Translations under genes and position numbers: made by a program
Notes under the pieces: generated by a model
What the model was told of the DNA's origin: nothing
The model's database searches: none
Seen by the model: only the letters and a program-made list of their open reading frames with translations
DNA from: Escherichia coli
GTDB lineage: Bacteria; Pseudomonadota; Gammaproteobacteria; Enterobacterales; Enterobacteriaceae
DNA: 64,000 bases
Direction: 5' to 3' (one strand)
Assembly: GCF_045037415.1 (NCBI RefSeq)
Contig: NZ_CP173438.1
Shown here: piece after piece, positions 12,214 through 54,981 of the stretch
How the letters are laid out: every line of letters starts with the position of its first letter
Position numbering within the stretch: position 1 is the stretch's first letter

Positions 12214-12300
12214 GCCCGGATGGTGGAATCGGTAGACACAAGGGATTTAAAATCCCTCGGCGTTCGCGCTGTGCGGGTTCAAGTCCCGCTCCGGGTACCA
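12214..12300 (+). tRNA. leuZ: tRNA-Leu (anticodon UAA), intact copy at prophage attL
   Basis: 87 nt GCCCGGATGGTGGAATCGGTAGACACAAGGGATTTAAAATCCC...GGTTCAAGTCCCGCTCCGGGTACCA. Long variable arm. Confidence 0.95.
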
Positions 12301-12369
12301 TGGGAAAGATAAGAATAAAATCAAAGCAATAAGCAGTGTCGTGAAACCACCTTCGGGTGGTTTTTTTGT
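12245..12369 (+). repeat. attL: left copy of the 125-bp direct repeat
   Basis: Identical base for base to 54857..54981. Covers the last 56 nt of leuZ plus the downstream terminator. Confidence 0.93.
12345..12367 (+). terminator. tRNA operon terminator (inside the att repeat)
   Basis: CCACC-ttcg-GGTGG followed by T7. Second copy at 54957..54979. Confidence 0.75.
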
Positions 12370-12430
12370 ATCTTCTTTCTCATTTCCGAAGATGCGTCCG
12401 AAGATGATTTTTCTCTGGACGCATCATCAT

Positions 12431-19757: not shown

Positions 19758-20509
19758 ACATCCTCCCGTTACTTGATAGACCCATAGCCTTCCAGAGAAG
19801 TTTTATCCGTCTTGAAATGGGCGTGACTGCCGCATTGTTTCTGTCGCAGTTGACGTACTGGACAAACAGAACAACTGACGACGGCTGGGTATATAAAACC
19901 CAGGATGAGTGGGAAGAGGAAACAGGGCTTTCACGATACGAGCAGGAGGGCGCGCGCAAAAAACTACGTGGTCTCGGCGTCTTGCTGGAACGTAAACAGG
20001 GCTTGCCTGCCAGGCTGTACTACAAAATCGATAATGATGTGTTGTGCCAGCTACTTACGTCCGCATACAAGGATGCGGAAAAACCACATACAGGTGAGGG
20101 GAAAACCACCAGGCCTGTACGTGGAAAACCAACAAACATTCTTACAGAGAATACTACAGAGATTATTACTGATGGTGAATCGGCTGACGCCGACACCCAA
20201 CAACCTGCCGACCAGAGAATAAATTATCAGGTGATACTCGATACCTATCACGAGATTTTGCCAGAGATGCCACCAGTGAAAATCCTCACTGACGGCAGAA
20301 AAAAACACCTTCGCACTTTCTGGAAAAAATTCAATTTCAATGAGTCCCGTTGGCGGGCCTATCTGGAATTTATCGGTGGCAATTGTCGCTGGATGCTGGA
20401 GGACAGGCCAAATGGCAGGGGAGGATTCTGGCGGCGTAAAAATCTTGATTATCTGATTACCGAACGCTGCTATGTTTCGGTCAAGGAAGAACGCGCAAAT
20501 GATAAATAA
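19754..20509 (+). CDS. replication initiator (O-like, winged-helix N-terminus)
   Basis: 251 aa. N-terminal region typical of phage replication initiators. Immediately upstream of, and overlapping, the helicase gene. Confidence 0.6.
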   Translation: MNILPLLDRPIAFQRSFIRLEMGVTAALFLSQLTYWTNRTTDDGWVYKTQDEWEEETGLSRYEQEGARKKLRGLGVLLERKQGLPARLYYKIDNDVLCQLLTSAYKDAEKPHTGEGKTTRPVRGKPTNILTENTTEIITDGESADADTQQPADQRINYQVILDTYHEILPEMPPVKILTDGRKKHLRTFWKKFNFNESRWRAYLEFIGGNCRWMLEDRPNGRGGFWRRKNLDYLITERCYVSVKEERANDK

Positions 20510-21914
20510 CGCGATTGCACTGTACAGCGTTGACGCAGAACAGGCTGTTCTGGGCTGTCTGATGCTGAATACCGACCACGACAGAACCAATGCGGTATTT
20601 GCGTTACTGAAACCGGAAACGTTTTATATCAATGCGCATCAGGTTATCTACCGGGAGATCAAAGGATTATTTCAAGCTGATAAACCAACTGACCTGATAA
20701 CACTGACCGAACTGATGGAATCGAAGGGGCTGTATGAGCGCGTGGGGGGATTCGCATACCTGGCTGAAATGAGTAAGGCGGCGATTCCGGCCTCAATGGT
20801 CAACTACGCGAAAATTGTACGTGAAAAAGCCATTCTTCGTTATGCCGTGGAAAAGTTGAATTCTTGTCTGGAGATTATGATCCAGCCTGCAGATATGACT
20901 GCTACTGACAGGATCACCGCCGTTCAGCAAGTGATTGGGCAGGTGGCCGAACATTCCCGTACCGGGCATAAGGGCGGTTTGCGTCCGGCAAGTGAAGTCG
21001 TCGATGACTGGATAGATGACCTTGAGCGCCGTTTCAATGATCCAGCACATGCAGCCGGACTAACGCTCGGAATCGAAAGCCTTGATCGCTTAATGGCACC
21101 AAAGCAGGCGTTAAGAGGTTCATTGGTCGTTATTGGTGCCCGGCCAAAAATGGGCAAGACAGCCGCGTTTAATAAAATTGCGGTGCATTTTGCTCTGAAT
21201 CATCGTTTGCCGACGCTGGTATTTAGCCTGGAAATGACTGACAGAAGTCTCATTGAACGCATGGTTGCGCAGGAAGCAAAGGTCAATTCGGAGATTTTTT
21301 ATCTTGGCCCTAACGATGAATCTGAATTGAGTCTCGCAATAGCAAAGGCGGGGGAGATTGCCGAATCCAACATGATGATTGACAGCACGGCAGGTGTAAC
21401 CCTTGCGCATATTGTCGCTGAATGTCGAAAAGTTAAACGGATGCGTGGCTCGGTTGGCCTGGTGGCAATTGACTATTTGACGCTGATGAAGACCGAATCG
21501 GCAGAGCGTAGGGATATTGCGTATGGCGATATCACAACCGGTTTGAAGAACCTGGCAAAAGAGCTGGATTGTGTTGTGGTCCTGCTGACGCAACTCAACC
21601 GAAAGCTTGAAGAACGTGCCGATAAGCGGCCTAACCCGAGCGACAGTAAAGATACCGGGCAGATCGAACAAGATTGCGATGTCTGGATTGGCCTCTATCG
21701 TGATGCTGTTTATAACGAAAATGCCGACCCAAATCTCATGGAAATGTTGCTACGTCTGAACCGCGAAGGACCATCGGGAACAGCCTATGCCCTGATGAAA
21801 AATGGCTCAGTTATTGATATCAGCGATGAGGAGGTTTATCGCCTTACCAACGACCGCTCAGAAAAAAATAAACGTTATTCCCGTAGCGATAATTCTCGCA
21901 CAAATGAATTTTAA
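20499..21914 (+). CDS. DnaB-family replicative helicase
   Basis: Start MINNAIALYSVDAEQAVLGCLML. Walker A GARPKMGKT. Conserved DnaB C-terminal motifs. Confidence 0.9.
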   Translation: MINNAIALYSVDAEQAVLGCLMLNTDHDRTNAVFALLKPETFYINAHQVIYREIKGLFQADKPTDLITLTELMESKGLYERVGGFAYLAEMSKAAIPASMVNYAKIVREKAILRYAVEKLNSCLEIMIQPADMTATDRITAVQQVIGQVAEHSRTGHKGGLRPASEVVDDWIDDLERRFNDPAHAAGLTLGIESLDRLMAPKQALRGSLVVIGARPKMGKTAAFNKIAVHFALNHRLPTLVFSLEMTDRSLIERMVAQEAKVNSEIFYLGPNDESELSLAIAKAGEIAESNMMIDSTAGVTLAHIVAECRKVKRMRGSVGLVAIDYLTLMKTESAERRDIAYGDITTGLKNLAKELDCVVVLLTQLNRKLEERADKRPNPSDSKDTGQIEQDCDVWIGLYRDAVYNENADPNLMEMLLRLNREGPSGTAYALMKNGSVIDISDEEVYRLTNDRSEKNKRYSRSDNSRTNEF

Positions 21915-21952
21915 CCACGCCTGACCAGCGTGAAATAACCGAGGAAAGACCA

Positions 21953-22363
21953 ATGACCACCACTCCAGGCAAATTAGAGTACCCGTCGGACAAAGGACAC
22001 ATAGACGACGGTAAAAACTATCTCGACGTCATTTTGTGGAATATGAACGTCGGGCCACGTGCGCGCACTCGCGCGGTTTTTGTGCCAAGACCTAAAGCAG
22101 GCAATTTTTCAACCCCTGCTAAGCCTGCCCGTCAGGCATCCGTAGCCGCAGCGCCAGCAGTGAAACGTAAGGGCAAAACGCACACCGGGATCGCGATTCG
22201 CAGAAATGGTGAGCGGCAAGTGAAACTCCACGAAACAGCGACAACCTGGTGTGCCTCACCGCATGAAACTTACGACAAGATAACCGGGCAGCGCATTGGC
22301 GCGCCTGGTCGCTGCCGCCTGCTGCTGAGTTCCATCACTCCGATAGCAAAGAAAGGGGCGTGA
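21953..22363 (+). CDS. hypothetical protein
   Basis: 136 aa. Preceded by the second GCCTGACCAGCG ... GAGGAAAGACC-A-ATG cassette. Confidence 0.6.
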   Translation: MTTTPGKLEYPSDKGHIDDGKNYLDVILWNMNVGPRARTRAVFVPRPKAGNFSTPAKPARQASVAAAPAVKRKGKTHTGIAIRRNGERQVKLHETATTWCASPHETYDKITGQRIGAPGRCRLLLSSITPIAKKGA

Positions 22364-22364
22364 T

Positions 22365-22601
22365 ATGGCCGGGCAATCAGATTACCTGCCGCCCGGCTTA
22401 CCACACAACCGCGCCAAATGGCCCCAGGAATACCAGCTTAAAGAGCACTACGACATGCGAGCGGCGGCGCTGATCCGCCAACTCTTTGAGAAACGTATTC
22501 CGAGGGGAAGCGTGATTGAGCAAATCGGAATGACGCCAGATACGTACCGGGAATTTTTCAGAGAGCGTCTGAACTACTGGAGAGGGGTGATGGAACAATG
22601 A
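22365..22601 (+). CDS. hypothetical protein
   Basis: 78 aa, tightly packed in the rightward early operon. Confidence 0.55.
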   Translation: MAGQSDYLPPGLPHNRAKWPQEYQLKEHYDMRAAALIRQLFEKRIPRGSVIEQIGMTPDTYREFFRERLNYWRGVMEQ

Positions 22602-22909
22602 AATACAAACGGTGGGTGCGTGCGGAAGTCGTAATCATCAAACAATGTGCGGGCAGCATGACAGTTGAACGTATAGGGCAGCTTATTGGCAGAACCGGTG
22701 CAGCGGTACGCACAAAAGCGCGCGAGCTGAAAATCTGTATGTATCTGCGGGGTAATTATCACCAGTCAGTGAAATACCTCCAGGAAGATATCGAGCTGGC
22801 AAGGGAATTACATCAGTCGGGTATTAATCGCCAGGATATCGCAGAAAAACTCGAAATGCCGATCGGAGCGGTGAATCAGTTTGTTTATTTTGAGCGGAGA
22901 ATTTCATGA
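22598..22909 (+). CDS. hypothetical protein with two HTH-like segments
   Basis: 103 aa. MTVERIGQLIGRTGAAVRTKAREL and INRQDIAEKLEMPIGAVNQF look like HTH motifs. 4-nt overlaps on both sides. Confidence 0.55.
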   Translation: MKYKRWVRAEVVIIKQCAGSMTVERIGQLIGRTGAAVRTKARELKICMYLRGNYHQSVKYLQEDIELARELHQSGINRQDIAEKLEMPIGAVNQFVYFERRIS

Positions 22910-23130
22910 AAGAACTTTTTCTTGCATTTGTGCCCCGGTTTATTAATGACCAGATCGCACTGACTGATAATGGTGAACAATATGAAATTGCCTGCAGCAT
23001 GGTGGATGTGAATCCTGGCGAACGGTATGACGCGATGTGTGACCTGAAAATATTTACCTGGCTGGGTTGGGCTATTCCGTGTGGAGAACCAACCAATATT
23101 CGTCCGTTTGAGAGCAGGGAGGCTGTATGA
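22906..23130 (+). CDS. hypothetical protein
   Basis: 74 aa, overlapping start and stop with its neighbours. Confidence 0.5.
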   Translation: MKELFLAFVPRFINDQIALTDNGEQYEIACSMVDVNPGERYDAMCDLKIFTWLGWAIPCGEPTNIRPFESREAV

Positions 23131-23317
23131 GTGAATTGAAAATACGTCGCAAGGCAATAGCACGCGTTAAAAATCTATTACCAGTGCCTGTCAAATATCG
23201 TTTTTGTGGTGGGAATGTACGGATTGGTACGGATGTATGGTGATTGCGGAGTGACGTAAAACGAATCGTTGTGGGTGTAATATCGTCAATATCATTGGTT
23301 TCCCGGAGGGAAAGGAC

Positions 23318-23539
23318 ATGTTTGGCGATAAACTGGAGTTACCACGGAACGGGCGGATAGTGCTCTATATTTCAGATTACAAAGTAACCCGGGCTGAGGT
23401 GTTGGAACCGGAAAAACATCTGGTCACGTTACCGGACATTATTGAGTTGTATAAGCGGGTCGGATATGTGGACTTGCATCGCGATGATGTTCCCGTTGAG
23501 TGTATGGAATGTGAACACCGGAGGTTTGAAGTTGATTGA
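23318..23539 (+). CDS. hypothetical protein
   Basis: 73 aa with a GGAGGG RBS. Confidence 0.5.
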   Translation: MFGDKLELPRNGRIVLYISDYKVTRAEVLEPEKHLVTLPDIIELYKRVGYVDLHRDDVPVECMECEHRRFEVD

Positions 23540-23540
23540 A

Positions 23541-23569
23541 TTGACTTAGAAAAAGTCCGGGGCTATAGT
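23541..23569 (+). promoter_or_regulatory. near-consensus sigma-70 promoter
   Basis: TTGACT-N17-TATAGT. Confidence 0.55.
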
Positions 23570-23575
23570 TTCCGC

Positions 23576-23650
23576 GCAGCCGCAAAATCGGTTGCCGGGA
23601 TTGGCGTCCCGGATATCTAAGTGACGCATAGCCGCGTTAGCGGTTTTTTT
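23576..23650 (+). ncRNA. candidate ~75-nt short transcript or attenuated leader upstream of the ant-like gene
   Basis: Runs from the predicted start after the promoter through hairpin CCGGGA-ttggcg-TCCCGG (23595..23612) to GCCGC-gtta-GCGGT plus T7 (23631..23650). Confidence 0.35.
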
Positions 23651-23811
23651 ATGTGTTAGGCACGGCCACATTCGCATTATGGTGGGCTGTGTGGGGGCTT
23701 CTGTGGAAGCGCCGGGTTCACTTAGCCGGTTACGCCAACCCTGCACAGCTCACCACCAGATGATTGGCGTCGCTGGTGGTGATGAAAAAAACACTAAGTG
23801 AGGCCACTGCG

Positions 23812-24600
23812 ATGACAGTCCAAATATCTGCGGAATCCCTTTCTCCGCTACATCATAACCAACTTCCCGTCATCACTACTGAATTGCTTGCCAGTTTGTA
23901 TGGCACGGAAGTAAATGGTATCCAGCAAAACTTCAAGCGCAACATCGCCAGATTTGTCGTAGGAAAGCATTTTTTTAAGCTGGAAGGTAATGAATTACGC
24001 GACTTCAAAAACAGACTGACAGATAGTCAGTCAGTTGCTAAACATACCCGATCCCTCATTCTCTGGACAGAACGCGGCGCAGCTCGCCATGCCAAAATGC
24101 TGGAAACAGAACAGGCCTGGGAAGTTTTCGAAAAGCTGGAAGATTGTTATTTTAGCCAGCGTCCAGAGAGGCGGAGTACAACTACCGATGACCGTACTCC
24201 CTTGCGTGATGCCGTTAATATACTGGTCGGCAAGAAAGGCATGATGTATCCCGATGCCTACACCATGATTCATCAACGCTTCGCCGTCTCTCACATAGAA
24301 CAACTGTCACAGACGCAAATGTTAGAGGCGATTGAATACATCCACTGCCTGCTACTCGATGAAAATCACCCAACCATTCCAGATTTTTCTTTTATCACCA
24401 CTATCAAAAATGGAAAAGTGACCGGGATGCGCCATGTTGCCAAAGGCGAACATCTGATGACCTTTGACGCTTTCAAAGAGATCGCTGAGCGGGCAGGGTA
24501 TCTGGTGATCCACAGCGACAATCTGCGAAGTATGACACTGGATAAATTGATGGTAATGGGGAAAAAGTCGGCTATATCCGTTGCTAATTCAGCATTTTGA
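23812..24600 (+). CDS. ORF6N-domain antirepressor-like (Ant/KilA-type) protein
   Basis: Start MTVQISAESL with a GAGG RBS. NQLPVITTELLASLYGTEVNGIQQNFKRNIARFVVGKHFFKLEGNELRDFK fits the ORF6N pattern. Confidence 0.65.
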   Translation: MTVQISAESLSPLHHNQLPVITTELLASLYGTEVNGIQQNFKRNIARFVVGKHFFKLEGNELRDFKNRLTDSQSVAKHTRSLILWTERGAARHAKMLETEQAWEVFEKLEDCYFSQRPERRSTTTDDRTPLRDAVNILVGKKGMMYPDAYTMIHQRFAVSHIEQLSQTQMLEAIEYIHCLLLDENHPTIPDFSFITTIKNGKVTGMRHVAKGEHLMTFDAFKEIAERAGYLVIHSDNLRSMTLDKLMVMGKKSAISVANSAF

Positions 24601-24628
24601 CAGGTTGTTTGGGGCGGAAATACTCTAT

Positions 24629-24710
24629 TTGCGCTTAAAAAGGTATTTGACCACGACCAGCACGAGACCGAATACCTCTGTCAAAGTACCGCCCATATAA
24701 AACAGTTACA
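24629..24710 (-). pseudogene. 3'-terminal remnant of a paralog of gene 28047..28652
   Basis: ~82 nt align without gaps to 28051..28132 with ~10 mismatches. Minus strand encodes ...YMGGTLTEVFGLVLVVVKYLFKRK*, versus ...YMGGTLTEVFGLVLVVTKYLFKRK* in the full gene. Confidence 0.65.
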
Positions 24711-24774
24711 TATGCACTTGATGACTAAGCTGGCACCAGGTTAACACCTGGCGCCAGCTTGAAGGAGACTTCAG

Positions 24775-25698
24775 TTATTGGTTTCTGAGGAAAGCGATTC
24801 TTGAAAGGGTCATTTGCGTCTGGCAGTCGACCATTTTCTTGACTTCAGCATCTGTTCCCTGCATTGAAACTTTACCGCACATAGCATCCTTAGTTTTGAT
24901 CCACTGACGCTGAGAAGGCAGCAAATCTTTTTTCTTCGCCGGGGTTAACTTGCTCCAGACGGTACTCAAATCAGAGTCGGCATTCGCAAATGCCATTCGG
25001 GACTGATCAAGGTTGTCAGCTTTTTGCGGCTGAAGTTGTGCCTGTCTCTCTATTTGCTTCTCCGCCTCATACTTAGCCTGTTCTTGCGCCCTGAGTTGCA
25101 CCTGTTGTTCCGCTTCAATTTGACTCTGTTGGGCATCCTTAGCCTGCTGGATTTTCTGCTGCTCAACGATCGGGGTGATAATGGAAAGCGATGTCAGTAA
25201 AGCGGCGCCCACTGATATCGGATTATCAGTAGAGGTTTTTACAAAAACGTTTTTCTGATCGTCGGTCGCCTGCACGGTGTAGGTGATACGTTTTGAAAAG
25301 GCGTTTGCGTTGTTCTCCAAAAACAGGCTTTCCATTTGCTTATCGAGATTACGATTAAAATTCTTTCTGTAAGCATCTGAAAGCTGGACGTACTCGTTCG
25401 CAGATAGAGTCATCGTCACGGTCCCTTCACAAGTTTTCATTGTGCTGCCCGTGTCACTTGATGTTGTGGAGATCTCAGAGATGGCTAGTTTGATCTTGTC
25501 CAGTGTGCTTCGTTTGGTCTGATTAGTGACATCAGGGTATTTATCGACCTGTTCAGAGAGTCCTTCATAAGCAGATTTTTTTAATAAATCCATGAGAGCT
25601 GACTGGGTTATTTCCGAAGAACAACCGATCTCATCTTTTTTGTTATCACAGCCTGTAAGGGCAATGGCGAGTAAGAGTACTGAGTATTTTAATCTCAT
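24775..25698 (-). CDS. lipoprotein with a DUF1311 (LprI-like) C-terminal domain
   Basis: Lipobox LLAIALTGC. Q-rich coiled-coil middle. C-terminal LPSQRQWIKTKDAMCG...C...R pattern typical of DUF1311. Confidence 0.75.
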   Translation of the reverse strand: MRLKYSVLLLAIALTGCDNKKDEIGCSSEITQSALMDLLKKSAYEGLSEQVDKYPDVTNQTKRSTLDKIKLAISEISTTSSDTGSTMKTCEGTVTMTLSANEYVQLSDAYRKNFNRNLDKQMESLFLENNANAFSKRITYTVQATDDQKNVFVKTSTDNPISVGAALLTSLSIITPIVEQQKIQQAKDAQQSQIEAEQQVQLRAQEQAKYEAEKQIERQAQLQPQKADNLDQSRMAFANADSDLSTVWSKLTPAKKKDLLPSQRQWIKTKDAMCGKVSMQGTDAEVKKMVDCQTQMTLSRIAFLRNQ

Positions 25699-26211
25699 GA
25701 ATTCCCTTTAGAGTAAGGATTGGTTTTTAAGACGCGGTCTGTAATCAGTCCCGAGAGCTACAGTAAACAACGCTGAGCACTGAACGCATCACAGGTAAGG
25801 TAAAAGGTGATATCGGCAAAGGCTGTGAAACCTTTAATTCAACAGATGGGAACGGTATGCGCAGGATCCTGTAACGACGCTCCCAAAACCGGAAACCTGT
25901 AAGGCATGTTTTCGCTGCTGAACTTAATATACGAACCTGCACTATCATGAACATATTTTATATCGTTATACCCCGAGTGATTGTGCCCGGCAATGGATAG
26001 TGTCCTGGAGGAACTATTTCTACTGTAAAAGGTAGATATTTAATTTCAGTTTTGAATTATTCCCTGCTGTTAATAACAATGGCTGTATATGGCACCGAGT
26101 AGGCATTTTTTCGCTTACTGAAGGGCAGCTGTGAGCGAGGAACAGACTTTCCCTACTTCGTTGAGAGTACACCTAGTACAATCAAGGCTAAATGATAAAA
26201 ATATACAAAAT

Positions 26212-26242
26212 ATCATATTTATGATATATATAATGGCATTAA
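26212..26242 (+). promoter_or_regulatory. palindrome plus MAL mini-ORF unit, copy 1
   Basis: ATCATA-tt-TATGAT followed by ATGGCATTAA. A near-identical unit occurs at 26798..26836. Confidence 0.3.
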
Positions 26243-26314
26243 TCTTATTCTTGGATTACGTTGAAAGGGTAATATTATATTTGTGTAACATAGTTTAGAT
26301 AACAATGCCGTTAT

Positions 26315-26322
26315 GGGGGGGG
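26315..26322 (+). repeat. homopolymeric G8 tract
   Basis: Eight consecutive G in a very AT-rich stretch, 3 codons after an ATG (26305). Separates two reading frames. Confidence 0.9.
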
Positions 26323-26797
26323 AAAGACATTTCAACATATTAGCTTTGTATCTAACGCTCATGTAGATCTCGATTTTGAACTTAAAGAACAATTATTTTT
26401 TAGAGAGCAAGGTATTTTTGGGGAACAAAAACATAAAGTAATGGAGAGAGGAGAATGTATCAAAAAATCATCGATTTAATTTAGATTGTCCGTATAGTTG
26501 GGGGTAAGTCGAATCGCTGGGCTACATGGAATATTGTGTCAAGTAAAAATATATTTCAATCTTGCAATAACCGATTGTTGAAAATAATGTCAAATCTTAA
26601 TGGTGAATGGGGAGAATATAATAAACATGAGTCGATATTATGCAAATGGATTTAAATATTTTATACCCGAAGACATAGGGTTTCGAGAGTTCGATGAGAC
26701 TACTTTGAATGCTTTCGAATTTGCTGGCTAAAACATATAGGTTATATCTTACATCTGTTTGTAATGGAGCGTAGATGCGACAAGCTACACCATAATA

Positions 26798-26836
26798 ATC
26801 ATATTATGATATATTGTTAAGTTGTTATGGCATTAA
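26798..26836 (+). promoter_or_regulatory. palindrome plus MAL mini-ORF unit, copy 2 (upstream of gene 26886)
   Basis: ATCATA-t-TATGAT followed 12 nt later by ATGGCATTAA. Confidence 0.3.
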
Positions 26837-26885
26837 ATAAAATTATGTCATTTTGTTAACCAAGCAAGAATCAAAGGACTTTTAG

Positions 26886-27584
26886 ATGGGTACGGCATTA
26901 ATTTCAAGCTTTATTAGTGGTGCAATAGCTATAATCTCTATTGCTATATCTACTTATAATCAGAATAGAATAAACAAGCTCAATGAATCACTGGATGTAA
27001 GGAGAAAACATCAGTACTATATTGAACCGTTAATTCGCTCAGCTTCAGACTTACAAAGCCGTATTTATAATATATTAGAATTGGGGTTCATTGAAGAGTT
27101 TTATCATAATGGGAATAAGCGCCAACAAGATTATGTTATCAACAATACTGTTTTTCTTTTTTCCCAGTTTTTTGCATGGACAGAAGCTGCCCGCATAGAC
27201 ATTCAATACCTTAGCCTAGAAAAAAATAAAAAAATGAGGGAGTTTATTAGATTACAGAACAATATTAACTCATTAATCCAAACAGACGTCTTTGGTCAGT
27301 ATTTTATGTTTTTCATAGGAGAGCAGAGAGCTATTGCAGAAAAGATGCTGATATCAACAGATACTGGATTTGATTGCATAGGTTACGGCAGTTTCACAAA
27401 GGAAAATTGCTTTATCAATGAGCCATTTTTTTTAGATTTAAACAATGAAGTGATAAATATGACAAGAGATATCGGAATTTATAAAGAAAGGCTAATCAGA
27501 ATACAGCACGCGTTAATCGATTTAATTAATTTTCTTGATCCTGGCATGATTCGATTTGACGGAAAAAAATATGGAAAAATATAA
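26886..27584 (+). CDS. membrane-anchored protein of unknown function (cargo gene)
   Basis: 232 aa with an AAGGA RBS. N-terminal TM helix ALISSFISGAIAIISIAISTY followed by a helical soluble domain. Very AT-rich. Confidence 0.65.
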   Translation: MGTALISSFISGAIAIISIAISTYNQNRINKLNESLDVRRKHQYYIEPLIRSASDLQSRIYNILELGFIEEFYHNGNKRQQDYVINNTVFLFSQFFAWTEAARIDIQYLSLEKNKKMREFIRLQNNINSLIQTDVFGQYFMFFIGEQRAIAEKMLISTDTGFDCIGYGSFTKENCFINEPFFLDLNNEVINMTRDIGIYKERLIRIQHALIDLINFLDPGMIRFDGKKYGKI

Positions 27585-27769
27585 CCCAGATGATTCGTAT
27601 CAAGGTAAGTTGCTATATGTATCAATTTAATTATGGTTGGGTGAAATTTATGTTAATAGTAGCGGAGGGTTAGTTAAAATATGCTCTCAGTGATTTTTGG
27701 ATAGTTCTTTTATTTATCATTGAAAGTAAATATGTATAGCTTCAAGATTTACAAGTGAATCTGTTTATT

Positions 27770-27801
27770 GACAGTCCGCTTATGGCACAGAGCGGACTGT
27801 C
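27770..27801. terminator. strong hairpin downstream of gene 26886
   Basis: Perfect 11-bp inverted repeat GACAGTCCGCT ... AGCGGACTGTC with a 10-nt loop and AT-rich flanks. Confidence 0.6.
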
Positions 27802-28046
27802 ATATTAAATTTGGCTCCACGCCATAGATGTGTCAGCTCATATCTTATCTAATACACACAATAACTTTCTCATTCTTGGAGAATTATTTTTTTAAGGGTA
27901 GGTGTTGACGTTAGAGCAAAAGAATGGTGATTTTTTTGATGTGTATTACGTTGGAACTGATGGGAATAACTATCTGTTTTCAACGCACTGCTAATTTATC
28001 AAGGCCCTTTGATCAGGGCCTTCGAAAGACTGTTGGACCGAGAGAG

Positions 28047-28652
28047 TTACTTGCGTTTAAAAAGGTATTTTGTCACGACCAGCACGAGGCCGAATACCTC
28101 TGTCAAAGTACCGCCCATGTACAACTGTAGTGTTAAATCCTCAAATTCCAGCTTACCTGCGCCGTCGGCAATAAATACACCATTCATTATCAGAAGTTGG
28201 AAAGCAAGGATAATCAGGAACCATTTCCCGTATCGTTTTTTTAGAGCGATTTCTGCTTCAAAATCTTTGTTGTTGAGTTGTTTGCGCTCATGCTCGGTAT
28301 CAAGTGAATTCACCTGTTTCACAGATGTGAACTCGGTCAAGATTTTACTCTCAGTACGGGTGACTTGTTGAGAGGGTGTAGCAGTTGGAATTCTTTTGCT
28401 AGACGCAGCTACAGCCATTTTGCGAGCTTCGGCAGCTCTTTTTCTGGCTATTCCGCGAATACGGACAGCCGTTTTTTTGGGGGCGTGCGAAACCTTTGGC
28501 TGAGGTGAAGCTTCGTCAGGAGACTGAACCGGAGTTTCATCGTCCTCCGGCTCAACCTCTTCTGCTAACTGACGGTGTAGGTTGAGGGAATCCTTCAGTC
28601 TGCGTGCTACTTCCTGTTTGAAACGGCTGTTAAAATCGTCATCCGATGGCAT
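28047..28652 (-). CDS. two-TM membrane protein with a charged, disordered N-terminal region (candidate effector)
   Basis: 201 aa. Hydrophobic helices WFLIILAFQLLIMNGVFIA and GGTLTEVFGLVLVVTKYLF. Starts 9 nt after the peptidase gene. Confidence 0.7.
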   Translation of the reverse strand: MPSDDDFNSRFKQEVARRLKDSLNLHRQLAEEVEPEDDETPVQSPDEASPQPKVSHAPKKTAVRIRGIARKRAAEARKMAVAASSKRIPTATPSQQVTRTESKILTEFTSVKQVNSLDTEHERKQLNNKDFEAEIALKKRYGKWFLIILAFQLLIMNGVFIADGAGKLEFEDLTLQLYMGGTLTEVFGLVLVVTKYLFKRK

Positions 28653-28661
28653 TTTAAAGCG

Positions 28662-29150
28662 TTACCCCAACCTCAAGTTCTTTAAACGATAAGTCATCGC
28701 ATCGTCAGATACGCCAAAATAATGCGCCATTATATAACTTGGTTGACCGTCAGCGTGCAGTTTTCTGACCTCATCTACCGGCATCAGAAGTTCTGCTGCG
28801 AACTTGTTTGCAAAAATTTCATCAGGATGCGTTCCGGCGCTTGCGGTTTCGCCACGTAAATCAACGTACTCATATTCATCGCTATGCGATGCTTGCCGGG
28901 CGATGTAATGCCCCAACTCATGCCCACATGAAAAACGTTGACGAACTTTGTTGTCATCACTGTTTAGAAAGATCGCTGGATCTTGATCTTTTTGTTTAAT
29001 CAGTGCGCCAGAAACTTTCCCAGGAAGATCGGTAATAAAAACATCTAATCCCATGTCGTGAGCAATTTTCGCTGGATCAACAGGGAAACCACGCCCGCAC
29101 CAGAACGTGTCCAGCACTCGCCGGGCGTGCTCTCTTGGGTTGGTAGCCAT
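28662..29150 (-). CDS. ImmA/IrrE-family (M78) zinc metallopeptidase, stand-alone
   Basis: 162 aa. HExxH in FSCGHELGHYIARQ. GGAGG RBS. No HTH domain or adjacent HTH gene. Confidence 0.8.
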   Translation of the reverse strand: MATNPREHARRVLDTFWCGRGFPVDPAKIAHDMGLDVFITDLPGKVSGALIKQKDQDPAIFLNSDDNKVRQRFSCGHELGHYIARQASHSDEYEYVDLRGETASAGTHPDEIFANKFAAELLMPVDEVRKLHADGQPSYIMAHYFGVSDDAMTYRLKNLRLG

Positions 29151-29548
29151 AGCTCCTCCAGTTACTGCATTACGATTATTGGTTGAAATATAGACAGCAT
29201 GTTCCGTACCACATTCCTGTAAAAGTGCAAATTCTGCACTTCTGGTACGATATTAACTGTTAGTAGTAAAGTCTTCCAGATAAATCACTTTAAAATCTTG
29301 TGAATTGCTTGCTTTTTACGCTGTATTGTGGATGGTTCAATGTTTCCAGTAAAAACATACATGATAATCATGAGTTTAGTGTTTTTTTAGGCGTCTATAT
29401 GTTTCTGGAAAATACAGGTCTAACCTGATCTTATCGTTGAGATTTTTTGTACTCAGTATGCGTGAACGATTCGACCAGGTGACTGTGTACGTGAAGAAGA
29501 CCGCCCTTAATATTTTAAATGTGCAACCCCTCAGAAGAGGGGCTACTC

Positions 29549-29782
29549 TCACTTCTGCAGTATCTCGCCAATACCTGCCAGATTCTCGTCCATCTTGTCA
29601 CCGTTTTCGATAAGGATGGAGTTGAGCCGATTCAGTTGCATAGCAATTTCAAGTTTGATTAAGGTATCCACCGATACACCAGTTTCTTTTGCTAACTTAG
29701 TAAGAGCCGCAGCTCGATTGGCTAAATTAAAATCATCGAACTCATAACGACTTCTGCACGGCTGGTTGCCTAACGTACCCAT
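29549..29782 (-). CDS. hypothetical protein
   Basis: 77-aa ORF with a GAGGAA RBS. Hairpin CCCCTC-agaa-GAGGGG just after the stop. Confidence 0.5.
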   Translation of the reverse strand: MGTLGNQPCRSRYEFDDFNLANRAAALTKLAKETGVSVDTLIKLEIAMQLNRLNSILIENGDKMDENLAGIGEILQK

Positions 29783-30025
29783 AGTGATTCCTCATGATAT
29801 AAAGACCCAACAATATAAATTACCAGGCACATCATAAGATAGGGTTCCAGCCCATATTTTCAAATATTTGCAAGTATCACCGTTCAGTCTAAAAAGTTGG
29901 ATGATGATTTAACGAGCCATAACAAAACCCTGCCTCGGAGGTTTTTTCTTTTTTATAGAACTCAGCGGCGTGAAAACGAATAATAAATTGTGCAAATAGT
30001 GCAGTTTTTATTATTCGAGGTAATT

Positions 30026-30667
30026 ATGAAAACCTTCTATGAGGACTGGCCTGAAACTTTCGTTAGCCGGTTAGATATGTTACGGGCGTTGGATGATCGC
30101 GGTTCGACCCGGAGGCTCTATCTTGAACGGACCGGGGCAATATTTGACGCTCTGGCAGAAGAGATACGTACAGTCGTTGCCGGGCATCCTGAAATCGACG
30201 TGAGTGAACTTGATATCGGGCCGCTGTATCGCTATTACAAACGTGGAGAAAAGGGGAATCCGCTGGCTGACTTACTTATTGAGTTGGCTCCACCAACTTG
30301 TGAACGGGTTCGTATATCTCCTGAAGTGTACATAATCCCGTATCTGTTTTTTGCACTGTTGATAGCGCAAGGCGCTGACAACGATGCCCGCGATTTTTTC
30401 AATATGATGATGCGACCGTTAATCATCGCCTACCGTTTCAAACAACTGGCGCGATACCTGGGAACAAAGGGCGGAGGACGACCACAGCACAGATTAAAAA
30501 GCGAAGCCATTGAACTGGCTGATCGTTTTTTTACTGAAAACCCGACAGCGCCATTATCGCGTGGCGTGCAATACATATCCGGTATTTTTGTGGCGAAATA
30601 CTCTGACCCACCTGCAGCGTCGACGATTAGAAAATGGTTAATTCCAATTTACAGGAGTGATAAATAA
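30026..30667 (+). CDS. hypothetical protein (cargo gene)
   Basis: 213 aa from the ATG with a GAGG RBS. No motif I recognise. Confidence 0.55.
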   Translation: MKTFYEDWPETFVSRLDMLRALDDRGSTRRLYLERTGAIFDALAEEIRTVVAGHPEIDVSELDIGPLYRYYKRGEKGNPLADLLIELAPPTCERVRISPEVYIIPYLFFALLIAQGADNDARDFFNMMMRPLIIAYRFKQLARYLGTKGGGRPQHRLKSEAIELADRFFTENPTAPLSRGVQYISGIFVAKYSDPPAASTIRKWLIPIYRSDK

Positions 30668-30760
30668 TGACCATAAACGGTTTAATCCCCTATAAAACCG
30701 TTTAATAAAATTCACGACGTGAATATAATTGTTCATTATTCCCTCATTGTATTTGGCGTT

Positions 30761-30796
30761 ATGACAAATGCCATAAAATACTGTATAAATATACAG
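30761..30796 (+). promoter_or_regulatory. sigma-70 promoter overlapped by a LexA (SOS) box
   Basis: ATGACA-N17-TATAAA. CTGTATAAATATACAG at 30781..30796 fits CTGT-N8-ACAG and the TACTGTATATATATACAGTA consensus. Confidence 0.6.
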
Positions 30797-30818
30797 GTTG
30801 TGGCATTGGGGGGAAGAC

Positions 30819-30998
30819 ATGAATATTCAAGAATCTATAGGCGAACTACCGGAAACATGCCGGGCTGTTATCAAGCGTAAGGACGGACACATCGTTGGTG
30901 TGCGTGTTCTGACCGATGATGAGCGGATTGCCAGCCTGATGGCGTTTCTCGAGTTGGCAGAAATAGCTGGATATACTATTACACCCCCTGACGCGTAA
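30819..30998 (+). CDS. small SOS-controlled protein (antirepressor candidate)
   Basis: 59 aa. ATG directly after GGGGGGAAGAC. First ORF downstream of the LexA box. Confidence 0.45.
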   Translation: MNIQESIGELPETCRAVIKRKDGHIVGVRVLTDDERIASLMAFLELAEIAGYTITPPDA

Positions 30999-31075
30999 AA
31001 CACGGTATAATATCGGTGCTGGATTGAACACCCGGCATCATTTTCTGAACACTGCCGCGCCACCTGGAGTTAACC

Positions 31076-31672
31076 ATGGCGCAGCATTCATTTATCAGGG
31101 TATCCGGCGGTTCGCTAATACCCGCGACACCAGACACGCAACGCTGGTTGACTGAACGAGTCAAACCAGGTGCTGTTGTGTATGCAGATTTCAAACAGGC
31201 GCGTAATCCCGCGTTTCATCGTAAATTTTTCTCACTTCTCAACCTGGGCTTTGATTACTGGCATCCGTCCGGAGGGGCTATTTCTCCTGCGGAGCGCGAA
31301 CTGGTTCACGGCTACGTTAAGTTACTGGCGTATTACGGTGGACACGGTGATGTCATGGCAGAGCTGGCTGATCAGTATCTTCTCGATGAGTCGGAAAAGC
31401 GCGCGGGGAGTATCAGTGCGGTGAAGTCGTTCGAGGCGTTTCGCGCATGGGCGATTATGGAAGCTGGGTTTTATGACGTTCATCAGATGCCAGACGGCAG
31501 TTTGATGCGCGTACCTCGTTCAATCTCGTTTGCAGCGATGGACGATCTTGAGTTCGGTCAACTGTATTCAGCCGTTTTAGATGTGCTGTGGAATTATATT
31601 TTGTTCCGCACATTTGCCTCTCAGGAGGCCGCTGAAAATGCCGCCGCGCAGCTGCTGGATTACACATCATGA
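31076..31672 (+). CDS. DUF1367-like nin-region protein
   Basis: 198 aa. N-terminal pattern FIRVSGGSLIPATPDTQRWL...ADFKQARNPAFHRKFFSLL resembles DUF1367 as I recall it. Confidence 0.55.
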   Translation: MAQHSFIRVSGGSLIPATPDTQRWLTERVKPGAVVYADFKQARNPAFHRKFFSLLNLGFDYWHPSGGAISPAERELVHGYVKLLAYYGGHGDVMAELADQYLLDESEKRAGSISAVKSFEAFRAWAIMEAGFYDVHQMPDGSLMRVPRSISFAAMDDLEFGQLYSAVLDVLWNYILFRTFASQEAAENAAAQLLDYTS

Positions 31673-31962
31673 AAAAAATCGACCTGAGAAAAGCTGCACG
31701 CAGTCGCGCTTGTACTGTGCGTATCCCCGGTGTGTGCAATCACAATCCTGAAACCAGCGTACTGGCTCATTATCGTCTCGCCGGAACGTGCGGCACAGCC
31801 ATCAAACCTCACGATATGCAGGGCGCTATCGCCTGCAGTGCGTGTCACGATGCCATCGACGGACGTACAAAAACGGATTACGAGCACGACTCATTGTTGT
31901 TGATGCACGCTGAGGGAGTTTTCAGAACACTGGCTATCTGGCGCGATGAGGAGTTTATCTGA
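31669..31962 (+). CDS. YbcO-like protein (DUF1364)
   Basis: 97 aa. DLRKAARSRACTVRIPGVCNHNPETSVLAHYRL...ACSACHDAIDGR closely parallels DLP12 YbcO. Confidence 0.75.
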   Translation: MKKIDLRKAARSRACTVRIPGVCNHNPETSVLAHYRLAGTCGTAIKPHDMQGAIACSACHDAIDGRTKTDYEHDSLLLMHAEGVFRTLAIWRDEEFI

Positions 31963-32633
31963 TGAGTAACGAGTATTTATTGGAATATACCCGCATAAAA
32001 CTGCGCGCTGCATTGCGGGATTTGTCTGGTGGTTCTAAGGGGCAACTGGAAGCATTGTGTGAGCACCCACCGGCAGACAAAAACGCATACCCACGCAAAC
32101 ATATTCACCGTGTGCAGCTGGAGGACCGGACCGTTGATGCTCTGGTTACGCCAGTTTACGCTCTGGAAAGTTTCAGCAGACGTCGCCCCGCGCCGCCGAT
32201 GAGTGATTTTGAATTTGCTGATTCATCCTGGCGGCGTTCTGTGAACTCGCTGGATGCAAGTCAGCAAGCGTGGTTGCGTTATTGCTACGGTGGTAACCTG
32301 GCATTCAAACACCAAACAGCTATTTGTGAGGCTGTCTGGAGTCGCTATAAAGGAAACATCCCCGCGTCAACTCAGAGAAAAGTAGTTAAGCGCCTGCTTT
32401 CGTTGGTGTGGTTGTCCGTGCAGGCGGTCGCAGCAGCAAATAAACGCGAGGATTTTAAGGAGATGGCCGGATCTACCCTAGCAGGAATGCTGTCGGTTTC
32501 TCGTTCCACCTGGTGCGAAACATACTCCCTGCACTGGGTAGGAATGAAAGAGGCGGTGAGAGCACTTGATGAAGTGGCACTTCTTGCAACTTTGCATCAT
32601 TATCAGAACCATTTAGACGACGTTTGCGTATAA
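31962..32633 (+). CDS. late-gene antiterminator Q-like protein
   Basis: 223 aa. Immediately upstream of a promoter and terminator leader and the lysis genes. QAWLRYCYGG region resembles the Phage_antitermQ family. Confidence 0.6.
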   Translation: MSNEYLLEYTRIKLRAALRDLSGGSKGQLEALCEHPPADKNAYPRKHIHRVQLEDRTVDALVTPVYALESFSRRRPAPPMSDFEFADSSWRRSVNSLDASQQAWLRYCYGGNLAFKHQTAICEAVWSRYKGNIPASTQRKVVKRLLSLVWLSVQAVAAANKREDFKEMAGSTLAGMLSVSRSTWCETYSLHWVGMKEAVRALDEVALLATLHHYQNHLDDVCV

Positions 32634-32745
32634 TGCTTGCAAAAACGAACAAAATAGGCCATATTTGACGCTAATTTGGTATGTTGCCAAATTTCTAAGA
32701 ACCTCGCCACGGCGGGGTTTTGTCGTTTCTGAATCAGGAAAAATC
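32634..32745 (+). promoter_or_regulatory. late operon leader: PR'-type promoter candidates plus tR'-like terminator
   Basis: TTGCAA-N17-CATATT (32637..32665). Hairpin CCTCGCC..GGCGGGG plus TTTT at 32702..32721, before the holin ATG. Confidence 0.45.
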
Positions 32746-33129
32746 ATGTCTGAACCTCTAACCGCTGGCGTTGCTGCTGGCTCGGCGGGGGTGACGTTTG
32801 CTGCGTTATTTCCTGAGGCAACACCTGCAGTGATGATCTGTGCGCTGGCAGGCGCAGCTCTCTATGTGTTGTCGTCCGGGCAGCATCGATTCTGGAAGCA
32901 GGTTATTTTCGCACTCATTTCGTTTGTTGGCGGTGTGTATTGCGCTGAGACAGCGTCAGCCATCATTACCGGTATTCTGAACGCGGTGCTGAGTCACCTG
33001 AACCCTCCCGTAACAGTAAAAGTCTCTCCCGCCATTGGTGCACTGGTTGCATCAGTAATCAGCGTTACATCACTGTTGCGGATCATGTCACAAGCTCGTT
33101 TATGGAAATCAGATAAGGGGATGAAATAA
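32746..33129 (+). CDS. holin candidate
   Basis: 127 aa from the ATG with several TM segments. First gene of the late operon. The track start at 32665 is a TTG inside the leader. Confidence 0.6.
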   Translation: MSEPLTAGVAAGSAGVTFAALFPEATPAVMICALAGAALYVLSSGQHRFWKQVIFALISFVGGVYCAETASAIITGILNAVLSHLNPPVTVKVSPAIGALVASVISVTSLLRIMSQARLWKSDKGMK

Positions 33130-54856: not shown

Positions 54857-54981
54857 ATTTAAAATCCCTCGGCGTTCGCGCTGTGCGGGTTCAAGTCCCG
54901 CTCCGGGTACCATGGGAAAGATAAGAATAAAATCAAAGCAATAAGCAGTGTCGTGAAACCACCTTCGGGTGGTTTTTTTGT
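54857..54981 (+). repeat. attR: right copy of the 125-bp repeat (3' fragment of leuZ plus terminator)
   Basis: Identical to 12245..12369. Contains only the last 56 nt of the tRNA (54857..54912). Confidence 0.93.

Follow-up and report, generated by a model that had tools for sequence, protein, structure and literature searches.

An old gene stub probably marks a variable cargo slot, bracketed by a still recombining direct repeat, in a prophage of sequence type 131 Escherichia coli

This report concerns a stretch of 64,000 nucleotides (nt) of Escherichia coli DNA (one strand of contig NZ_CP173438.1, assembly GCF_045037415.1; hereafter the window) and, within it, an imperfect direct repeat of 81 nt in a prophage shared with strains of sequence type 131 (ST131). 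One copy of the repeat (copy B, 28048-28128) is the 3' end of an intact gene for a putative two-transmembrane (2-TM) protein, and the other (copy A, 24626-24706) belongs to a truncated remnant of the same kind of gene. We consider it likely that this remnant, an old stub joined as a unit to the gene of an LprI-family lipoprotein, flanks a variable slot of the prophage, and that the repeat formed by stub and intact gene still recombines. Positions 23700-29200 are 100% identical to the prophage of ST131 strains such as EC958 and JJ1886 and occur nearly whole in 402 of 5426 complete E. coli genomes; among the matches listed, most are ST131. The features on which the argument rests are the following.

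23812-24600, plus strand: ORF6N-domain anti-repressor-like gene, the left anchor of the slot (Pfam ORF6N, E = 1e-21; phrog_4792 anti-repressor, E = 3e-163; Prokaryotic Genome Annotation Pipeline entry in EC958)
24625-24711, minus strand: copy A, decaying 3' stub of a 2-TM gene, a stop plus 28 codons (alignment and relatives)
24727-24760, no strand assigned: hairpin AAGCTGGCACCAGGTTAACACCTGGCGCCAGCTT 3' of the LprI gene, the first conserved feature of the LprI module beside the stub (read in the sequence; kept in TUM13936, HCP5S3 and Escherichia whittamii)
24775-25698, minus strand: LprI-family lipoprotein gene, 307 aa (Pfam LprI, E = 4e-7, residues 225-304; phrog_5094)
28047-28652, minus strand: intact 2-TM gene, 201 aa, whose 3' end is copy B (phrog_5346; no Pfam match)
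28662-29150, minus strand: ImmA/IrrE (M78) metallopeptidase gene, the right anchor of the slot (Pfam Peptidase_M78, E = 8e-18; PADLOC CapP-like, E = 2e-25)

The two copies align without gaps, agree at 72 of 81 positions (89%, nine mismatches) and lie 3422 nt apart. A repeat scan of 20000-33000, with which pairwise alignment agrees, returned this pair as the only strong direct-repeat family, and about 7.5e-22 such matches would be expected by chance in the 64-kb window. The repeat that an initial annotation of the window had placed at 24629-24710 and 28051-28132 is thus real, with its boundaries shifted by 3 nt. Translated on the minus strand, copy A reads ...HM*LFYMGGTLTEVFGLVLVVVKYLFKRK, and the intact 2-TM protein ends in ...LTLQLYMGGTLTEVFGLVLVVTKYLFKRK, the two stop codons occupying the same position. 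The convergent ORF6N gene stops at 24600, 24 nt before copy A starts, and between the copies lie the LprI gene, an AT-rich region and a gene of 232 aa; both the placement directly after the anti-repressor-like gene and this bracketing had been described correctly. Against less decayed copies in relatives, homology extends beyond the 81 nt by three more codons (T-L-Q). Because it continues past the in-frame TAA at 24706-24708, a point mutation of TTA, this stop lies inside the stub and is not its edge. The earlier description of a remnant of some 30 codons preceded by an in-frame stop therefore holds for the remnant, a stop plus 28 codons, and not for the position of the TAA. In-frame homology reaches the end of the gene including its stop codon, the 5' part is absent, and the copies in relatives show neutral decay in the form of a frameshift, a nonsense mutation and changes at otherwise invariant sites. 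By these comparisons copy A is confirmed as a real, decaying and, to judge from its sequence, non-functional 3' stub of a 2-TM gene.

The gene from which the stub derives belongs to a family of 48 clusters, found in Enterobacterales only, with a variable N-terminal half and a last stretch of about 30 residues that is nearly invariant across genera; residue 194 is threonine in 57 of the 58 family sequences with an intact C-terminus. Wherever examined, the 2-TM gene follows the 162-aa M78 peptidase gene. The ImmA/2-TM pair, surveyed at 28047-29150 of the window and at our loci L009, L015, L016 and L019-L028, is kept in at least six genera, being present in Klebsiella, Salmonella, Enterobacter, Leclercia, Buttiauxella and other E. 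coli prophages, always in accessory positions that differ from one another (beyond the integrase, or before the holin). A sensitive search with 27980-29200 matched 457 of the 5426 E. coli genomes, at about two places each, the stub and the intact gene; since the matches are confined to these genomes, copy A is a true gene remnant and no generic repeat. The repeated 81 nt are thus the most constrained coding segment of a mobile two-gene module. Pfam, NCBIfam and PADLOC assigned no function to the 2-TM protein. Unlike the usual ImmR or CapH partners of ImmA, it has no helix-turn-helix domain.

The junction between the stub and the LprI gene is what dates the truncation. The LprI module extends from 24712 to about 26116, homology to five relatives stopping at 26099-26134. 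In these five (TUM13936, HCP5S3_I2, STEC434, 22KM0354 and E. whittamii) the module is 91-98% identical to that of the window, and in all of them, as in ST131, the stub is joined at one common point to the hairpin 3' of the LprI gene. Having no T-tract, this hairpin was not reported by the terminator scan. Two subtypes of stub can be told apart. Those of TUM13936, STEC434 and E. whittamii (subtype 1) share a frameshifting deletion of 1 nt and still read T-L-Q-F-Y-M upstream, from which we take it that the stub reaches 24711; those of ST131, 22KM0354 and HCP5S3 (subtype 2) carry single-base changes in the T-L-Q codons, among them the TAA at 24706-24708. The stub of 22KM0354 has every A-type base except one, that of HCP5S3 has extra substitutions, and in ECO20 only the last 12 nt remain after the ORF6N gene. 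Over the corresponding 81 nt the intact gene, in contrast, does not vary among ST131, STEC434, 22KM0354 and E. whittamii. Beside the stub of HCP5S3 and that of E. whittamii, the native 3' flank of the 2-TM gene is still present with its hairpin AAGGCCCT...AGGGCCTT, and the origin of the stub from a 2-TM gene is therefore confirmed. As the stub-LprI junction is common to lineages that are 2-9% diverged from the window and to E. whittamii, the truncation predates the ST131 prophage, and we infer a single origin of the junction, that is, one old truncation followed by neutral decay. The proposal that an arrangement was interrupted in this very prophage is not supported by this result. The stub of E. 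whittamii is itself recombinant, B-type at the first two sites, with a left flank like that of ST131 copy B, and stub-type thereafter, as would be left by a second, independent crossover inside the 81 nt.

HCP5S3_I2 carries two 2-TM stubs and no intact gene (L004, 10936-11177); the second stub follows an insertion sequence (IS) of the IS3 family and has its own end of an 85-aa gene and its own hairpin. Spacers of clustered regularly interspaced short palindromic repeats (CRISPR) from other E. coli strains were also matched to the locus. In strain 23CRST031, spacer GTATTTTGTCACGACCAGCACGAGGCCGAATA of a type I-E array matches copy B at 32 of 32 positions (28065-28096; protospacer-adjacent motif (PAM) AAG) and differs from the stub at four. 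The start of the LprI gene (25667-25698) is matched, likewise at 32 of 32 positions and with an ATG PAM, by spacer GCGAGTAAGAGTACTGAGTATTTTAATCTCAT of a type I-E array in DA33137, and an equivalent CRISPR-annotated match was seen in roughly 120 further genomes. A candidate third spacer match, from strain 3CM, corresponds to 25193-25225 of the window.

The initial annotation had suggested looking among relatives for a version in which the 2-TM gene directly abuts the anti-repressor-like gene. With a chimeric query, the 3' end of the ORF6N gene was found joined directly to an intact 2-TM gene in 1 of the 5426 complete genomes, that of the chicken isolate GPEC172 (99.5% identity). Its single repeat copy is a hybrid, with A-type bases at the six diagnostic sites on the left and B-type bases at the three on the right, and the switch point lies inside a core of 29 nt that is the longest identical run of the two copies. 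Over about 50 kb, including the chromosomal flank fliC-uvrC, GPEC172 differs from the window by nine other substitutions only, which makes it an ST131-type genome. Its 2-TM protein carries a stub-derived valine at residue 194 (T194V), seen in no other intact family member. The hybrid protein was found on 23 contigs, whereas the ST131 allele has at least 1000. Every one of the 24 contigs read for the hybrid is collapsed, and in one of these a comparison with GPEC172 over 10.6 kb showed a difference of 1 nt. Exactly the interval between the copies is thus lacking, with one hybrid repeat present and flanks otherwise identical. A species-wide scan of the 2-TM family (three confirmed loci) returned no independent, non-hybrid contiguous layout of ORF6N and 2-TM genes, and distant family members adjoin integrases or lysis genes, not ORF6N. 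The layout of GPEC172 is most likely a secondary deletion of 3,422 bp by recombination between the repeats, a reading favoured by the hybrid copy, the ST131-identical flanks, V194 and the age of the stub-LprI junction. The contiguous version thus exists, in some 24 or more assemblies, and is best read as a revertant deletion rather than as the ancestor it had been expected to represent. On this evidence, together with the recombinant stub of E. whittamii, the 81-nt repeat would still be a recombination substrate.

Dissection of the bracketed interval, by pairwise BLAST against relatives and junction alignments, bears on the further claim that it arrived as one cassette of about 3.4 kb. To the right of the LprI module we recognise the following features.

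26117-27811, plus strand: AT-rich (about 31% GC) mobile cassette with the 232-aa gene (26886-27584), ending in a terminator-like hairpin (GC profile; phrog_5606)
27767-27866, plus strand: terminator-like boundary element, a stem-loop GACAGTCCGC...GCGGACTGTC (27769-27802) with about 55 nt more (terminator scan)
27846-27994, plus strand: second scar, a 3' stub of an 85-aa gene, ...VLTLEQKNGDFFDVYYVGTDGNNYLFSTHC*, its last ~50 codons (alignment and translations)
28001-28022, no strand assigned: hairpin AAGGCCCTTTGATCAGGGCCTT, which separates the 85-aa stub from the 2-TM gene convergent with it (read in the sequence; found also before the stub of HCP5S3 and of E. whittamii)

The AT-rich cassette is 99.5% identical to a segment of GCA_916172495.1 (L040, 6231-7926) lying in an island that is unrelated to the prophage and carries IS21, dynamin-like and patatin genes, and 86% identical to the Z-region ORF1 record of the P2-like phage P2-EC58 (L001, 227-1956). 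It is thus met in three unrelated settings, a lambdoid slot, a P2-like Z-region and this island. A conserved leader of about 750 nt travels with the 232-aa gene. The 232-aa protein, for which P2-EC58 gave the only match in the phage collection, matches RTasTM (DRT accessory transmembrane protein) weakly in PADLOC (E = 1.8e-5); apart from this, Pfam and NCBIfam indicated no function. The boundary element, for which no Rfam family was found, is also met by itself: about 296 further E. coli genomes without the cassette have it at 77-90% identity, in unannotated DNA at cargo borders of prophages (for example a CPS-53-like prophage). It corresponds to the 'left inverted repeat' annotated in the P2-EC58 record AJ512683, where it flanks the Z-region insert, and its left arm (27775) is where homology with L034, ECO20 and E. 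whittamii breaks. No inverted repeat joining the ends of the cassette was found, and a degenerate copy of the element at the left border (26000-26200), which would have given the cassette flanking repeats like those annotated in P2-EC58, was rejected, its best match TATGGCACNGAG being equalled in 97 of 300 shuffles. Upstream of the 85-aa stub are two in-frame stops, and an intact homologue, WP_033814620.1, is present in HCP5S3; the AT-rich cassette appears to have cut this gene and so to have left a scar of its own inside the older bracket. Rather than one cassette, the 3.4-kb interval is a composite of at least three modules with separate histories and a second scar.

That the site exchanges cargo, as had been proposed, is borne out by its relatives: at least six gene sets occupy the slot on the same backbone, between conserved genes. 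Three genes, one of 65 aa, one of the GIY-YIG type and one of 134 aa, are found there in STEC434, 22KM0354, CP009104 and E. whittamii. TUM13936 carries a lipoprotein-like gene and an HNH gene together with a full-length PD-T4-3 (E = 6e-138), HCP5S3 combines an NsnA/PD-T4-2_A-like DUF262 gene (E = 5e-41) with an IS3 element, and ECO20 has a methyltransferase gene and a SMEK-domain gene. In GCA_014748725.1 (L034) the order is ORF6N, cargo, 2-TM, with neither LprI gene nor stub, and the cargo is the complete candidate system PDC-M25A/B (E = 3e-157 and 5e-96). In GPEC172 the slot is empty. Known defence systems are thus among the cargo of relatives; in ST131's own cargo PADLOC gave no strong defence match. 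The left flanks of STEC434 and 22KM0354 are 91% and 98% identical to the window, yet the middle cargo is common to both, and breakpoints must therefore lie between modules.

These observations can be ordered into the following history. The LprI module would have been joined illegitimately, once and long ago, to the last 28 codons of a 2-TM gene, and stub and LprI gene would then have moved as a unit among lambdoid prophages of the YdaT/RepO/DnaB type, the backbone common to the relatives. In ST131 and several relatives this unit would have come to lie to the left of the slot, with an intact ImmA/2-TM operon carrying a different allele to its right; a stub on the left and an intact gene on the right make an imperfect direct repeat around the slot. 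The two copies are different alleles joined by recombination between phages, since the insertion of DNA into a gene cannot yield a stub and, at the same time, an intact copy. Cargo may have turned over by two routes, homologous recombination in the conserved flanks and, at the borders of the slot, joins that were illegitimate or relied on short homology; in ST131 the 1.7-kb AT-rich cassette would have cut the 85-aa gene, leaving the second stub. Later, a crossover in the 29-nt identical core presumably removed 3,422 bp in a rare ST131-like sublineage (GPEC172), and a separate crossover near the left end of the repeat may have changed the left neighbour of the stub in E. whittamii.

Several points weigh against this history. 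The hybrid copy of GPEC172 is equally expected from the reverse event, a Campbell-type insertion of a circle, and the direction we prefer rests on parsimony and T194V rather than on a rooted tree. Stubs occur with two kinds of left flank, ORF6N-type and 85-aa-gene-type; as both exist and L034 has no stub, the ancestral neighbour of the intact gene is ambiguous. The second stub of HCP5S3 stops near the codon at which the LprI-linked stubs end and may or may not stem from the same junction. Microhomologies of about 8-10 nt at the ends of the cassette were recognised by visual inspection of alignments, and all of the evidence comes from the comparison of sequences.

Of the other explanations, one goes beyond the history just given and is in our view a rather doubtful speculation. 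It holds that the nearly invariant 3' end of the 2-TM gene and the 27767-27866 element serve as a homology patch for trading cassettes. If this were true, unrelated prophages, lambdoid and P2-like, and islands would trade and precisely shed small defence cassettes, and the stub would be kept at the population level because the cargo stays exchangeable. A separate speculation is that the ImmA/2-TM pair and the 232-aa AT-rich gene of pandemic ST131 are uncharacterised anti-phage systems. Similarly doubtful is that the 2-TM 3' end and the nearby hairpin element are docking sequences selected for recombination, not passive scars, akin to the boundary or linker sequences that have reportedly been proposed for lambdoid phages. 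Two independent crossovers inside the 81 nt (GPEC172 and E. whittamii), the two stubs of HCP5S3 and the recurrence of the hairpin of 27767-27866, which about 300 genomes, P2-EC58 and an island have at cargo borders, would suit such a role. However, the stub decays through frameshift, nonsense mutation and substitutions, as expected without selection; strong constraint on the last 30 residues of the protein explains the similarity of stub and gene; L034 and ECO20 swap cargo without an intact stub; and collapse is rare, having occurred in 1 of about 430 complete genomes with the 2-TM/ImmA operon.

We regard as improbable the original proposal that a single cassette of about 3.4 kb interrupted an ancestral arrangement of anti-repressor-like gene and ImmA/2-TM operon in this prophage, with GPEC172 as the empty ancestral site. 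A contiguous layout does exist, and a hybrid repeat suits a Campbell-type insertion as well as a deletion, but the stub-LprI junction shared by lineages 2-9% diverged from the window and by E. whittamii is older than the ST131 prophage, the flanks of GPEC172 are identical to ST131 and not intermediate, the stub of 22KM0354 already has all A-type bases but one, V194 of the collapsed gene is found in no other intact family member, and the interior modules are separately distributed. It is very improbable that the stub is functional, either as a hydrophobic peptide of 23 aa, MGGTLTEVFGLVLVVVKYLFKRK, or as an RNA or terminator element of the LprI or ORF6N gene: an ATG-initiated reading frame of 23 codons remains in ST131 and 22KM0354, but a frameshift disrupts it in TUM13936, STEC434 and E. 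whittamii, the copy in HCP5S3 is changed, ECO20 retains 12 nt only, and Rfam and terminator scans gave neither a match nor a terminator-like structure in 24600-24720 (over 24500-29300, at E <= 1, Rfam returned two chance-level eukaryotic matches and nothing else). A chance similarity, or a generic repeat or terminator at many unrelated loci, can be dismissed, since nothing speaks for it in the 81 nt, which are in-frame coding sequence from the most conserved part of a protein family, far beyond the chance expectation and restricted to the 457 genomes at about two places each; it is the different stretch 27767-27866 that behaves in this way.

Our preferred reading, an old stub-LprI unit beside a variable slot, places the locus among well-known phenomena. 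Mosaic joints of lambdoid phages, with gene stubs, 'morons' and illegitimate followed by homologous exchange, are a classical subject of the modular theory of phage evolution (Hendrix, Juhala, Hatfull). As in such joints, a truncated gene end here stands beside an imported gene with its own hairpin, base composition differs (31% against about 46% GC), the flanks are common to relatives that differ in the interior, and short homologies occur at the joins. Unlike them, the locus keeps an intact paralogous copy 3.4 kb away and has a natural deletion product on record; with that copy in the same phage, the ST131 scar is also a live direct repeat. Homologous recombination, RecA-dependent or of the phage Red type, is known to delete DNA between short diverged direct repeats. 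The precise loss of 3,422 bp, the single hybrid repeat and the switch in the longest identical run (29 nt) are what such a deletion leaves; unlike the textbook case, the repeats are only 89% identical and the event is deduced from natural variants. Direct repeats bracketing imported DNA also recall target-site duplications and attachment (att) sites. A transposon target-site duplication was rejected, the repeats being 81 nt long, 89% identical and coding, with no transposase among the open reading frames (ORFs) or Pfam matches and no terminal inverted repeat in the bracketed interval. Integrase att sites were likewise rejected, as the ORF list and Pfam show no recombinase gene in 24600-28050 and the prophage's own att repeat lies elsewhere.

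Hotspots of anti-phage defence genes in prophages have been described at the old/tin locus of P2 and in P4 (Rousset et al. 2022, PMC9122126) and in the E. coli pangenome (Vassallo et al., bioRxiv 10.1101/2022.05.12.491691). Like these, the present slot has a fixed position between conserved phage genes and many alternative small gene sets, the cargo of relatives includes PD-T4-3, NsnA-like and PDC-M25 genes, and one cassette is also found in a P2-like Z-region; unlike them, the ST131 slot lies in a lambdoid backbone, between the ORF6N anti-repressor-like gene and the nin/Q region, and not next to cos. No description of this slot was found in either of the two papers or among the titles returned by literature searching. 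The phenomenon is ordinary phage mosaicism at a defence-type hotspot, which is well documented, and no new kind of element; what it adds is this particular slot, a naturally occurring deletion product and a candidate status for the ST131 cargo. Because the slot of relatives holds validated or candidate anti-phage genes, the ST131 cargo is a reasonable candidate for prophage-encoded defence, the putative components being the 232-aa AT-rich gene, the LprI-like lipoprotein and the cross-genus ImmA/2-TM pair. As a marker, the scar points to a cargo slot in a prophage of about 400 of the 5426 complete genomes; defence encoded in this way bears on phage therapy against ST131. Each step of mosaicism is also cleanly illustrated here, from illegitimate join and homologous spread to nested scars and repeat-mediated loss.

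The prophage itself, of about 42.7 kb, is delimited by att direct repeats of 125 nt, at about 12246-12370 and 54857-54981, which overlap a tRNA-Leu gene. Its make-up combines lambda-like early, lysis and head regions with P2/Mu-like contractile-tail genes. In the phage collection, the region was matched only by P2-EC58 and by a single ImmA fragment. Slot copies of ST131 type that bear IS elements or show IS-linked rearrangements were seen in NZ_CP195410.1, NZ_CP030337.1, FXCREC145 (L010), OZ040941.1 (L036/L041) and L029. In one genome an IS1 falls within the stretch matched by the LprI-module query, in another within that matched by the 2-TM/ImmA query, and in one ST131-type slot copy the LprI gene is split by an IS3-family element. 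In FXCREC145 an IS1 follows window position 25971 and is itself followed directly by P2-like tail genes, and L029 carries an ISL3 element and a DUF1706 gene further to the right.

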